IMG/VR virus record: IMGVR_UViG_3300027625_000002 | DNA from: a virus | Strand: one strand, 5' to 3' | Length of the DNA stretch: 64,000 nucleotides | In this document: piece by piece, positions 10,878 through 35,835 of the stretch | How positions within the stretch are numbered: the stretch's first letter is position 1 | Layout of the letters: each line of letters begins with the position of its first letter | Position numbers and translations under genes: made by a program | Notes under the pieces: generated by a model | The model's input: only the letters and a program-made list of their open reading frames with translations | The model's database searches: none | Told to the model about the DNA's origin: nothing

Positions 10878-11141
10878 CTAGTCTCTGTCGCCCTTCATCT
10901 CGTTGAAGGCGTCCGAGATTTCCTTCCAGCTTACCTCGCCGTAAGCCGTATGAAGCTTGCCGGGCGAGAGGTTCTTCATGTCAGGGGTCCCGTTCGGGAG
11001 CATCTCGAGAACGAAGTCTTTCGCCTTCGCTGAGGTGAATCGACCACGGTGTTCAAGGACAGAATGGTAGAGCCCTTCGTCGTTGCCGAACCAAAGGGCG
11101 ATGTTCCATGTCATCCGATTCTTCCAGCCGTTATACGCCAT
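10878..11141 (-). CDS. standalone 'WKN' domain protein (MAYNGWKNRMTWNIALWF...)
   Basis: ORF track 87 aa; homologous to N-terminal domain of fusion protein 35329..35835. Confidence 0.6.
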   Translation of the reverse strand: MAYNGWKNRMTWNIALWFGNDEGLYHSVLEHRGRFTSAKAKDFVLEMLPNGTPDMKNLSPGKLHTAYGEVSWKEISDAFNEMKGDRD

Positions 11142-11214
11142 GGCGTTGTTCCTCCCCCCGCAGTCTACCGCTGCGCGCCCGCCGGGCCAAAATTACGGGA
11201 ATTGTGTGTCGGCC

Positions 11215-11898
11215 TCAGTCCGTGCCGGAAGTACCCGTGCTCACGCCCACGTTCACCGCCACGGGCTCGGGGATCGCATCCGTGTACGGGTGCGCCGCGT
11301 AGTACGTCATCGCGCGATCGAGTCGCGCTTTCGCCTTCGGGTGCCGGTTGTCCATGCAGCTCTCGCCCGAGTAGGCACAGAGCGAGCCGTGGTACTTGAG
11401 CGAATCACGCTCGACGCGCTGCGCGACGCGGACAGCGACCTTCCGGTCGGCGACAAGCTCGGCGCCGCCAATCACGGTGTGGGACGCGAGCACGCTGGGA
11501 GCTGCGTACATCTTCGACGAGAGCGTGCCGTCCTCGAGCAGGATGTAGCCGCCTCCCGAGACGTGGATCTGCCAGAGCGAGAACGCGTGCCTGCCGTCGC
11601 AGTCGCCGCGCCTGTCGGCGACGTACCCGGCCTGGTTGCACGACCCGTCGTCGACGAACTTCTGGAAGCCCGTCTCCATGCTCGCGATGGCAGCCTGGAG
11701 CAGCGCAGTCTTCACGCGGCCGTCGGCGTGTGCGAAGACGGACGGCTCGCTCGCGTCGAGAGCGACGGTGACGATGTCCTCCGCCACGGAATGCAGGCGC
11801 GCCTTCGCGTCGTCCTCGCTCTCGCCGTACGGGGTGAGGTTCCGCACCGGGATCCAGGAGAGGATCGCGACGAAAATGTAGCTAACGAGATTTTGCAT
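11215..11898 (-). CDS. secreted/exported hypothetical protein (N-terminal signal-like helix)
   Basis: ORF track 227 aa. Confidence 0.6.
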   Translation of the reverse strand: MQNLVSYIFVAILSWIPVRNLTPYGESEDDAKARLHSVAEDIVTVALDASEPSVFAHADGRVKTALLQAAIASMETGFQKFVDDGSCNQAGYVADRRGDCDGRHAFSLWQIHVSGGGYILLEDGTLSSKMYAAPSVLASHTVIGGAELVADRKVAVRVAQRVERDSLKYHGSLCAYSGESCMDNRHPKAKARLDRAMTYYAAHPYTDAIPEPVAVNVGVSTGTSGTD

Positions 11899-12019
11899 CC
11901 GATCGCCCGTACTTCACGAGCGAGTGGATGACAACTGCAATCGCCACACCTGCACCTGTAGCGAGCAAGAACTCTGCCACGACCGCCTTCGCGATCTCCG
12001 CTTTCGGTTTCTCAGTCAT
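11882..12019 (-). CDS. small membrane protein (45 aa, one TM)
   Basis: Manual: ATG 12019 ... TAG 11882; overlaps start of 11215..11898; below ORF-track cutoff. Confidence 0.4.
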   Translation of the reverse strand: MTEKPKAEIAKAVVAEFLLATGAGVAIAVVIHSLVKYGRSDAKSR

Positions 12020-12139
12020 GTTCTTCTCTTCGAGGTTTTCCTTGAACTAATACATTGGACTTCGCTCGCAACCGACTGTGCCAAAGGCACGGTCGATTTC
12101 TTCTTGCTGGGAAGATGCCGAAGGCGTCGTTACCAGATG

Positions 12140-12457
12140 TCATCGCAAAATTTCTGCTCGGTGCACGATGCACTCGAGCAGCGGCTTCGGGAACTCCTCG
12201 CCTTCCGGTTCGTTCAGATCGATCGTGACATAGCCGTCGTCCGACACATGGATTATCGCGGCGAGCGGGCCGCGGGTGGGCCCGCGCGCGAGCTTGCGCG
12301 ACATGGAAGCGAAGATGCTGAACTCGTACCCGTCGTCCGCCGCAGAGGCCGTGAGCGGCCCGATGCCCACGAGCGACCGATCGCCTCTCGTCACCCTCTC
12401 GCACGCGCTGCGGAGCTTGAGCGCGTACCTGTGGGCGGACGACTTGCCGAGCGGCAT
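12140..12457 (-). CDS. hypothetical protein, family C (MPxGxSxAxRxALKL...LLECxVHxAE)
   Basis: ORF track 105 aa; paralog of 28255..28536. Confidence 0.55.
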   Translation of the reverse strand: MPLGKSSAHRYALKLRSACERVTRGDRSLVGIGPLTASAADDGYEFSIFASMSRKLARGPTRGPLAAIIHVSDDGYVTIDLNEPEGEEFPKPLLECIVHRAEILR

Positions 12458-12461
12458 CGCG

Positions 12462-12938
12462 TCAGCGTTCCTCGGCGACGTACTCTTTGATGATCTCGTC
12501 GTCCTCGAAGAGCACTACGTCTTCACCGGCCACACGGCCGAAGTTCTCCTCGGAGTCCTCCACGTACGAATGGAACGCTTCCTCGGCTTCCTTGCGACTG
12601 AACCCGCTGTAGACGGTGCCGACGTTGCCGACGACAACCCTGTACTCCTCCTCCGACCGCGCCCTCGACGCTTTCTGAGGCTTCGGCAGCTCGACGACCT
12701 CGCGCCGAAGCTCACTCTCGGTGCCTTTGGCGAAGTCGAGCCACGATCCATCCTTTTGTCTGCGCTCGGTATAGAGCATCAGGGTCCCCTTGCCACCGAA
12801 ACCCGTGAAGTATGAAGCACTCCTTGAGAGTCGGAACACTTCGTCAGGAAAACCACGCATACCGAACGTTTTCGGGAACGTGCCGATGACTTCATCGATC
12901 TTGTCTTGTTCGTCCTTCTGCATGACCTCTTCCTTCAC
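12462..12938 (-). CDS. hypothetical protein
   Basis: ORF track 158 aa. Confidence 0.55.
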   Translation of the reverse strand: MKEEVMQKDEQDKIDEVIGTFPKTFGMRGFPDEVFRLSRSASYFTGFGGKGTLMLYTERRQKDGSWLDFAKGTESELRREVVELPKPQKASRARSEEEYRVVVGNVGTVYSGFSRKEAEEAFHSYVEDSEENFGRVAGEDVVLFEDDEIIKEYVAEER

Positions 12939-34135: not shown

Positions 34136-34333
34136 GCGTCCTCGCGTTCGCGGAGACAGAAGCCGCGATCCACGCGACGGCGCGCGCGACGCAGCCCCTT
34201 TTTCTTGCCCCATCGCCACATCGCGTGCCTGTCCTTGCTCCGGTAACAAGAAATCATTCCCACGTGGAGACCTCGCCACAAGAACATGCTGTCGTGGTTC
34301 TCGACCTGGCGACGAAGGCCGCTCGCACCCACG

Positions 34334-34762
34334 TCAAGCTCCCCCGAGGATGGCGGTCGGATCCTCGAGCGTGTCGCCGACGCGGACCTGCACCGTCGTG
34401 AGAACGCCGCCGCCCTTCATGTACGTCACCTTGACGACTGGTTCTGCATCTTCGTAACCCTGCGCGCGAAGCTCCGCGACGCGCCAGCACACGAGATCGC
34501 ACGCGTCCCCGATCCCGCGCCTCGCGGTGTGCGGGATATCCTGCCAGACCCCGAAGTCGGCCGGTCCCCCGTATTTGGGTGCCACGTTGTAGAGGCTCGG
34601 GTAGCTCGAGCCCGCGCTCTCCTCGTGCCGCTTCAAGAATGAGACGTTCATCGCGACGAGCGCTTCGAGGAGCCGGCGCAACGTCAGCATCCTCTCCTCG
34701 GGGACAGCCTCTTCCTTCTTGACCTTCTTCGCGTTCTTCTTCGCGTCGTCCTTCTTCATCTC
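34334..34762 (-). CDS. hypothetical protein with Lys-rich N-terminus (contains LRAQGY motif)
   Basis: Internal ATG MKKDDAKK of ORF 34334..34933; upstream part would overlap tmRNA. Confidence 0.5.
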   Translation of the reverse strand, partial: EMKKDDAKKNAKKVKKEEAVPEERMLTLRRLLEALVAMNVSFLKRHEESAGSSYPSLYNVAPKYGGPADFGVWQDIPHTARRGIGDACDLVCWRVAELRAQGYEDAEPVVKVTYMKGGGVLTTVQVRVGDTLEDPTAILGGA

Positions 34763-34788
34763 GGACCTGAGTTCGAATTCATTGCGTT

Positions 34789-35160
34789 GTGGAGGCGTCG
34801 GGAATCGAACCCGAGTCCGGCAAATTTCCAAGCTCACCTTCGTCCACGTGCGTGATCGACTCGAAACAAAAACAGCGCCACCGCGTCGATTCAGTTTTGC
34901 TGGTTTCCGAGGATCTCGCCTCGGCAGAGCCATTCTTCAAAGTCCCGCACGGATGGTTAGGCAATCCCCGTGAAGCTAGCCTCTGTTGGGTTGATGGTGC
35001 CTGGATACCGAAGCGTCTACCGGACTACCAGCTCAGGCCGCTAGGGCCGGGGCGAATGCGTTGTCGTTCGCAGATATACGACTCGATTGGTCACAGCGGA
35101 TCGAGCGCCGCTCACACGCAGATGAGTTCTTCTTTTCGCCGTCGAAACCTGGTCACCCCC
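34789..35160 (-). ncRNA. ssrA: tmRNA (SsrA), tag reading frame ANDNAFAPALAA-stop at 35033..35071
   Basis: 5' GGGGGUGACCAGGUUUCGACGG and 3' GGGUUCGAUUCCCGACGCCUCCA; acceptor 5'-GGGGGUG/3'-CGCCUCC with G3-U70; CCA not encoded. Confidence 0.85.
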
Positions 35161-35191
35161 GAATTGTTCATGTTTCCAGAAATTCTAAGCT

Positions 35192-35266
35192 TGGTAACAG
35201 GGGAAGGATTCGCACCTCCGACCTCCAGGTTATGAGCCTGGCGAGCTACTCCTGCTCTACCCTGCG
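35192..35266 (-). tRNA. tRNA-Met(CAT)-like (could be initiator-like or Ile2/lysidine), non-canonical
   Basis: Cloverleaf drawn by hand: D-arm GAGC/GCTC, anticodon loop CTCATAA, T-loop TGCGAAT, encoded CCA; C1xU72 mismatch and G55; 28 nt upstream of ssrA. Confidence 0.5.
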
Positions 35267-35328
35267 ATCCGAAACGTAACTCAGGACACGGCTGACGGCA
35301 ACTCGCCCTCAGCAATCGGCGCGCGTCA

Positions 35329-35835
35329 CTACCCGATCCCGACGAGACGCCCGTGGATGGCGCCTCGCTCCACCCACCCGTTGATGCGGTGATCGCTGGC
35401 GATCTGGTAGAAGCCATTCTTCATCTCGATCACGCGATGCAGCACCACACGGCCCCCGACCTCGCAGAGCACGACGTCGCCCTCGCGGACGGCCCGCTCG
35501 CCGATCGGCTCCACGGTGCACAGCTCTCCGGGACGGATCGTCTCCGACATCGAGTCGCCGTGCGGCCTGAACCTCACGGTCTTGCCGGCCGCGAGCCTAT
35601 CCGTGATGTGCCCAGCGCTCTCATTGAAGTCCTTCGCGATCTCGGGCCACGACACGGCTTCGTGCTTCACGGTCTCCGGGAGCAAGCCCAGGACGAACGC
35701 TTTCACGCGGATGGCGTCGAAGGGACCGCTCCTTTCGTACTCGCGGCGAAGGAGCCGGTGGAGCCCCTCGTCCTCCTCGAACACGTGGGCGACGTCCCAC
35801 GTCGCGTGGTTCTTCCAACCTTTGTAATTACTCAT
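35329..35835 (-). CDS. fusion protein: N-terminal 'WKN' domain + C-terminal S24 peptidase domain
   Basis: MSNYKGWKNHATWDVAHVF... matches 10878..11141; ...FRPHGDSMSETIRPGE...NGWVERGAIHGRLV matches 26237..26547. Confidence 0.65.
   Translation of the reverse strand: MSNYKGWKNHATWDVAHVFEEDEGLHRLLRREYERSGPFDAIRVKAFVLGLLPETVKHEAVSWPEIAKDFNESAGHITDRLAAGKTVRFRPHGDSMSETIRPGELCTVEPIGERAVREGDVVLCEVGGRVVLHRVIEMKNGFYQIASDHRINGWVERGAIHGRLVGIG

Follow-up and report, generated by a model that had tools for sequence, protein, structure and literature searches.

A small S24/S26-fold domain with a candidate Ser/His pair, encoded both alone and fused to DUF7249 in a virus-derived DNA element

Introduction

What could be the function of a viral protein in which two small domains are joined that the same element also encodes separately? 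This question is raised by IMG/VR virus record IMGVR_UViG_3300027625_000002, of which 64,000 nucleotides (nt) of one strand were analysed and are referred to here as the window. Three genes are concerned, namely those encoding an 87-amino-acid (aa) protein, a 102-aa protein, and a 168-aa protein that combines relatives of both (Table 1). An earlier note, made from the letters of the sequence, had described the two parts as a "WKN" domain and an S24 peptidase domain and had suggested that together they form a self-cleaving sensor or an anti-defence module. The fusion gene proved to be real and under selection, and its C-terminal half belongs to a family of about 100-aa proteins, here designated mini-S24, in which an invariant His appears to occupy the place of the expected catalytic Lys.

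Results

Pairwise BLASTP aligned the 87-aa protein with residues 4-75 of the fusion (39% identity, E=3e-14) and the 102-aa protein with residues 71-167 (54% identity, E=1e-34), which bears out the claim that the two domains exist both separately and fused. Further copies of the three proteins were not found by tblastn in the whole window, where the next matches had E>=0.05. The junction within the fusion is nearly seamless: the first domain ends with '...FNE' and is followed directly by 'SAGHITDRL', the counterpart of the N-terminal 'WASGHIEKL' of the 102-aa protein. The separate gene for the latter exists as described in the earlier note, but the end given there, 26547, results in 311 nt, which is no multiple of 3; the true end is 26545 and the product has 102 aa. 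A longer open reading frame of this gene, started by GTG and extending to 26800, overlaps the upstream gene at 26559-26972.

An artefact of assembly or gene calling was ruled out as the source of the fusion by the identical 168-aa protein, which is listed on 20 contigs (six places, from six samples of the Joint Genome Institute, were read), and by an orthologue of 170 aa (P0002) which is 82% identical and also fused. Comparison of the fusion gene with the orthologue on contig L173 gave a synonymous divergence (dS) of 0.82 and a ratio of nonsynonymous to synonymous substitution (dN/dS) of 0.12 overall, with 0.14 for the DUF7249 half and 0.09 for the S24 half. The fusion is thus under purifying selection.

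Such a fusion is rare. Both domains were found in one protein in only 2 clusters among 5.8 billion sequences, all from this lineage. Co-occurrence of the two domains, a search for which the earlier note had proposed, was likewise not seen within 3 kb at any of 157 viral loci outside the lineage (77 with mini-S24 and 80 with DUF7249). In a neighbour-joining tree of 204 sequences the S24 half of the fusion is sister to the stand-alone copy of the window. No sequence from outside the lineage exceeds 55% identity to the fused copy, whereas the stand-alone copy still shares 63-67% with other members of the family. The sister placement points to a duplication within the lineage, so that the fusion, as judged from the tree, most likely arose after the mini-peptidase gene of the phage had been duplicated. 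The two domain families were already catalogued, and the fusion itself is a modest, lineage-restricted event.

The β-fold catalytic core of S24/S26 peptidases is present in the mini domain. The fusion passes the Pfam model Peptidase_S24 with 27.6 bits (cutoff 23.3), and the 102-aa protein falls just below the same cutoff (22.7 bits, E=8.6e-5). A sequence search of the PDB with the fusion gave nothing significant, and the nearest curated model, the archaeal-type signal peptidase TIGR02228, was matched weakly (E=1e-4, 22 bits vs a cutoff of 51.85). For alignment to known structures, a profile was built from 22 mini-S24 homologues. With Staphylococcus aureus SpsB, the family Ser was placed on the Ser of 'GESM' and the family His on the Lys of 'YVKRV', which we take to be the Ser36/Lys77 dyad of this enzyme. 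With Escherichia coli LexA, hhalign placed GxSM on Ser119, and ungapped extension of the alignment put the His on Lys156. The Ser has been retained by 72 of 73 viral homologues and by all 136 others, and the same counts apply to the His.

The Ser-Lys dyad named in the earlier note was consequently found by half: its Ser aligns with the nucleophile, whereas the dyad fails at its second residue because the position of the general base (Lys77 of SpsB, Lys156 of LexA) holds the invariant His. At the level of the alignment, the family conserves a Ser/His pair like that of Sec11 and of archaeal signal peptidases. Three residues beyond the His, a Lys (Lys67) is found in 135 of the 136 non-viral but only 23 of the 73 viral copies; in the two copies of the window this position holds Ser and Ile, and in neither of them Lys. 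The family further shares the motif 'QIGNNRGxINGW', with invariant Asn-Asn, in place of which the fusion has 'ASDH'. This motif presumably resembles box E of signal peptidases ('GDNRxxSxDSR'), and its 'GNNRG' site may be equivalent to the box-E Asp residues of Sec11.

These conserved positions bear on the possibility that the domain is a non-catalytic module for binding of peptides or proteins, either a pseudo-peptidase similar to SipA of Streptococcus pyogenes or an SH3/Tudor-like barrel that recognises proteins or RNA; DUF7249 would then provide another binding module. We regard this as unlikely: across over 200 homologues, which come from phages and from several phyla, Ser and His are essentially invariant while neighbouring positions vary, and both the GxSM and the box-E-like motifs are kept.

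A hydrophobic segment that could span a membrane was not detected (maximum Kyte-Doolittle(19) values of 0.96 and 1.45), and no helix-turn-helix (HTH) or other DNA-binding domain was found attached to the S24-like domains, in agreement with the earlier note. Stand-alone members of the family have about 25 residues before the Ser, and a cleavage loop of the LexA type is therefore missing. This bears on the proposal of a self-cleaving sensor similar to LexA and UmuD, in which the S24 half would respond to a signal by cutting an Ala-Gly bond of the linker (A74-G75 or A83-G84) and would thereby free the DUF7249 half. The fusion does possess the S24 fold and the nucleophile Ser, and its linker 'NESAGHITDRLAAGKTV', which is identical in the 82% orthologue, contains an 'LAAG' similar to the 'VAAG' site of LexA. 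However, G84 is located only 11 residues before Ser95, compared with 34 residues from Gly85 to Ser119 in LexA, and the segment preceding the Ser was modelled as a short helix (77-82) followed by a strand instead of a strand-loop-strand arrangement. The residue before the invariant Gly of 'LAAG' is Ala in only 9 of the 22 homologues, the stand-alone members start at this very helix and would have nothing to cleave off, and the putative general base is His, not Lys. A self-cleaving sensor, as envisaged in the earlier note, is accordingly very improbable.

A profile search revealed at least 8000 clusters of mini-S24 proteins of about 100 aa which are about 60% identical to each other, and the 102-aa protein shares 57-67% identity with homologues of this length from bacteria and huge phages. 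Some of these proteins are encoded on chromosomes, complete or at least large, of Planctomycetota, Acidobacteriota, Myxococcota and Bradymonadia. The bacterial genes showed no conserved neighbour: depending on the genome they adjoin genes for HAD hydrolases, for a Macro-domain protein or for trypsin-like proteases, the nuo operon, or DprA/RecQ. Adjacency to tRNA genes was not found for the bacterial homologues. In a Bradymonadia metagenome-assembled genome the mini-S24 gene directly follows a Macro-domain gene (L008, 7489-8303), and on a soil metagenome contig nuoF and nuoG are separated by an insertion that comprises it and an unknown 208-aa gene (L013, 4363-5303). The 77 viral loci stem from IMG/VR, many of them on contigs of 200-600 kb, and nearly all their mini-S24 genes are stand-alone genes starting at the domain boundary. 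Conservation is relaxed at several positions in the 73 viral compared with the 136 other copies, which is consistent with capture from hosts.

Mini-S24 thus represents a very abundant, strongly conserved and uncharacterised family with the LexA/signal-peptidase fold, in which, by alignment, the place of the catalytic Lys is taken by an invariant His. Should its members be active, no soluble representatives of the S24/S26 clan would be smaller, and the Ser/His variant would no longer be confined to membrane-bound signal peptidases. Our literature search on S24 proteins of huge phages, S24 genes with tRNA arrays and stand-alone S24 proteins retrieved nothing relevant.

The 87-aa protein was identified as a member of Pfam family DUF7249 (PF23907; 46.8 bits, cutoff 27) and of phrog_871. 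The "WKN" domain was rightly called uncharacterised, since neither the Pfam nor the PHROG entry gives a function, the PDB yielded no match to its fold, and a literature search on DUF7249 retrieved nothing relevant. The protein contains the family signature Y-x-G-W-x-N-x-x-T-W-N...L-W..N....Y...P-x-G-T-P-D and keeps 18 of the 18 positions that are conserved at >=80% among 179 members, and is hence a canonical, full member. Its close homologues (70-81% identity) are encoded on contigs of 218-600 kb. The corresponding half of the fusion keeps 9 of these 18 positions; it has lost the GTPD loop, the Leu-Trp, Asn20 and Tyr25 and is about 10 residues shorter. Its homology was recognised by a custom hidden Markov model (HMM; E=1e-19), but with 21 bits it remains under the Pfam threshold.

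When 1.84 billion representative proteins were searched with a profile, 6379 DUF7249 clusters were obtained at E<=1e-3; the domain also occurs in at least 582 IMG/VR loci. Cultured phages of Synechococcus, Escherichia, Enterobacter, Clostridium and Ralstonia encode members amid small hypothetical genes. About 35 of the best 150 matches are longer than 120 aa and carry varied N- or C-terminal extensions; a Pfam scan of these 35 proteins assigned one RadC-like JAB domain and one Kyano_Gp96, the other partners being unannotated. DUF7249 is therefore a large, mostly phage-borne family which is often joined to varied partner domains, and among the members seen only the lineage described here has it joined to an S24/S26 domain. 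A Rosetta-stone inference, by which the fusion would indicate a functional link between its halves, carries little weight, given the many unrelated partners to which DUF7249 is joined. Through the fusion, a phage domain with thousands of members becomes accessible to experiment. Six metagenomic DUF7249 proteins (P0058, P0063, P0067, P0069, P0070 and P0102) differ in their middle domains and have in common an Arg/Pro-rich C-terminal tail of the form 'LREHPYPPPRRPAARPLPRRR', perhaps a signal for targeting or packaging that they share.

The fusion gene is followed by two RNA genes, encoding tRNA-Met(CAT) and a transfer-messenger RNA (tmRNA), which are the only RNA genes of the window (Table 1). 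The order of fusion gene, tRNA-Met and tmRNA is kept in L173 (RNA genes at 3723-4201), with an identical tag but with different upstream genes. More generally, co-oriented tRNA genes were found within 3 kb in 28 of the 77 viral mini-S24 loci, 22 of which have three or more, and in several loci a tRNA ends only 13-100 nt before the mini-S24 start codon. By chance, a tRNA array of ~6 kb in a 300-kb genome would meet a random 6-kb window a few percent of the time. Huge phages thus appear to have captured the mini-S24 gene repeatedly and to have placed it in tRNA arrays.

Table 1. Positions of the genes, domains and candidate residues discussed in the text
Feature	Positions	Strand	Basis
Stand-alone DUF7249 ("WKN") gene	10878..11141	-	Open reading frame, 87 aa + stop
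Stand-alone mini S24/S26-fold gene	26237..26545	-	Open reading frame, 102 aa + stop
Candidate catalytic Ser26, 102-aa protein	26468-26470	-	
Candidate catalytic His64, 102-aa protein	26354-26356	-	
Fusion gene, whole	35329..35835	-	Open reading frame, 168 aa + stop
Fusion residues 1-75, degenerate DUF7249 half	35611..35835	-	BLASTP, custom HMM, conservation count, dN/dS
Fusion residues 76-168 + stop, mini S24/S26-fold half	35329..35610	-	
Candidate catalytic Ser95, fusion	35551-35553	-	
Candidate catalytic His133, fusion	35437-35439	-	
tRNA-Met (CAT)	35192..35266	-	ARAGORN; Rfam tRNA, 53.9 bits; 62 nt downstream of fusion gene
tmRNA, tag ANDNAFAPALAA	34787..35160	-	ARAGORN; Rfam RF00023, 88.2 bits; next downstream
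N6/N4 DNA methyltransferase gene	24646-25383	-	Pfam, 4e-24
RNA ligase, RtcB and phosphoribosyltransferase genes	47540-48385, 52720-53517, 54120-55544	-	RNA ligase: phrog_14301, 1e-44; RtcB: Pfam, 7e-85
Gene of 870-aa protein with major vault protein shoulder domain	48757-51369	-	Pfam, E=1.5e-29; Vault_3 repeat, 3.7e-8; no PHROG match
AAA+ protein gene	62737-63996	-	phrog_29662 'ATP-dependent protease', 1e-85

A clade of huge phages represented by IMG/VR contigs L041, L047, L050, L062, L066/L067 and L081 has a conserved cluster within its tRNA arrays, at about 2.9-6.1 kb of each locus, in which tRNA-Met(CAT) and mini-S24 are followed by genes for a DSP-like phosphatase, a truncated release factor consisting of PCRF and RF-1/GGQ parts (1e-30), and NADAR (3e-29). 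Several arrays also contain tRNAs with four-base anticodons (taag, ggtg, ctcg) predicted by ARAGORN, namely L043 (4728-4805), L065 (4314-4388), L066/L067 (627-716) and L079 (3957-4034), which may be similar to frameshift suppressors or may be prediction artefacts.

The window has a GC content of ~62% and is densely packed with small co-oriented genes; a near DNA match was not found among 50,697 phage records. Judged by its gene content, it is probably an accessory region of a huge phage. In scans against Pfam and PHROGs, the immediate neighbours of all three genes gave only families of unknown function, and first impressions of ParB-like (25845-26288 and 35832-36263) and MazG-like (26559-26972) products were not confirmed. 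Elsewhere in the window, genes were identified for a DNA methyltransferase and for an AAA+ protein. A protein similar to the major vault protein is also encoded, which is unusual for a phage-like element. The RNA ligase and RtcB, accompanied by a phosphoribosyltransferase, form an RNA-repair set, which suggests that the element repairs cleaved tRNAs.

This set is also relevant to the idea of an anti-defence module put forward in the earlier note. As an effector of host takeover, the peptidase would cleave an immune sensor or a nuclease of the host, DUF7249 would recognise the target, and the tRNA array would be an anti-defence locus. Phage tRNA clusters are described as anti-defence loci in two papers (PMC13096335, PMC12803027), RtcB and RNA ligase are tRNA-repair enzymes, and in cultured phages the DUF7249 genes are situated among small genes of early or accessory type. 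On the other hand, a PADLOC scan of the three proteins and four of their neighbours gave no match, and the two domains never co-occur within 3 kb in the 157 other viral loci. In addition, homologues encoded on bacterial chromosomes in ordinary surroundings share ~60% identity with the mini-peptidase, and this speaks for an activity conserved in cells rather than for a weapon specific to phages. An anti-defence function is therefore improbable.

Discussion

The explanation that we favour, tentatively and as a possible rather than a probable one, is that the fusion encodes a soluble Ser/His peptidase acting in trans, with its diverged DUF7249 half as an adaptor, and that it is expressed together with translation and rescue genes of the phage. 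The C-terminal half would be a soluble LexA/signal-peptidase core of ~95 residues equipped with the Ser/His pair and a signal-peptidase-like box E (GNNRG vs GDNR). We infer action in trans because neither a cleavable N-terminal loop nor a DNA-binding domain nor a membrane anchor is found, and the mini domain may then be a small peptidase working in the cytoplasm or, at the least, bind peptides in a groove. DUF7249, a phage helical domain, would dock or localise this peptidase in the fusion. The placement of viral mini-S24 genes in tRNA arrays, and of the fusion gene directly upstream of tRNA-Met and tmRNA, suggests that these genes are co-expressed with the phage toolkit for translation and translation rescue and may have a part in it, and the fusion provides a testable link to phage tmRNA and tRNA functions. 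Homology, fold, residue conservation, purifying selection, distribution and gene order are established by the analysis; catalysis, action in trans, the adaptor role and the link to translation are inferences.

Several observations weigh against this explanation. An acidic third residue is not conserved in the mini-S24 family, and the Asp-Asn found in box E of signal peptidases corresponds to Asn-Asn here. The adaptor role of DUF7249 is proposed from its domain promiscuity. With respect to translation, the stand-alone copy at 26237 has no RNA gene nearby, and tRNAs at 1 of 60 DUF7249 loci, the comparison set for the proximity of tRNAs to mini-S24, constitute an imperfect control, as DUF7249 loci mostly belong to small phages and the 77 mini-S24 loci are not phylogenetically independent. 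As the bacterial homologues have neither tRNA linkage nor a conserved neighbour, the apparent link to translation could instead reflect where accessory genes of huge phages accumulate. Finally, the window does not contain a capsid or terminase gene, and its assignment to a huge phage is therefore only probable.

A more far-reaching interpretation, which we consider quite doubtful, is that the Ser/His mini S24/S26 proteins form a hitherto overlooked class of soluble, translation-linked peptidases, which huge phages would carry within their tRNA arrays; in the present lineage one copy, tethered to DUF7249 near the tmRNA, could process nascent or ssrA-tagged polypeptides. The phage tag ends with ...APALAA and thus offers Ala-x-Ala sites of the kind used by signal peptidases. 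If this were true, processing of ssrA-tagged or nascent chains would be a new step in the control of host translation rescue by phages.

Among known peptidases, the type-I signal peptidases of family S26 are the closest relatives as regards the putative active site. Those of the Ser/His type, S26B (Sec11/SPC18 and archaeal signal peptidase I), appear in the alignment to have the same Ser/His at box B and box D. As the structural references, S. aureus SpsB (PDB 4wvh) and E. coli LepB (1t7d), were used. S26 signal peptidases possess a membrane anchor or signal sequence and a large β-sheet domain II, both of which are absent from the mini domain with its ~95 residues, and they have the box-E Asp in place of Asn. 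The mini domain, moreover, is cytoplasmic, encoded by phages or chromosomes, and shows no link to secretion. LexA, UmuD and lambda cI of family S24 share with it the nucleophile Ser in G-x-S-M, but they have Lys156 at the position of the His and an Ala/Cys-Gly cleavage loop ~35 residues upstream, and LexA and cI have an N-terminal HTH domain; neither loop nor HTH domain is found in the mini domain.

SipA/LepA of S. pyogenes (PDB 4n31, 4k8w) is a non-catalytic homologue of signal peptidases required for pilus polymerisation, which presumably lacks the catalytic residues; the mini-S24 family, in contrast, keeps the invariant Ser and His and has no pilus or sortase context. The maturation protease SodX of nickel superoxide dismutase (TIGR02754) shows by precedent that a soluble S26-type enzyme can have ~100 aa and process a single specific cytoplasmic substrate. 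It differs from the mini-S24 proteins in that it presumably uses Ser/Lys, its match to them is weak and not significant (E=0.09), and they show no sodN context.

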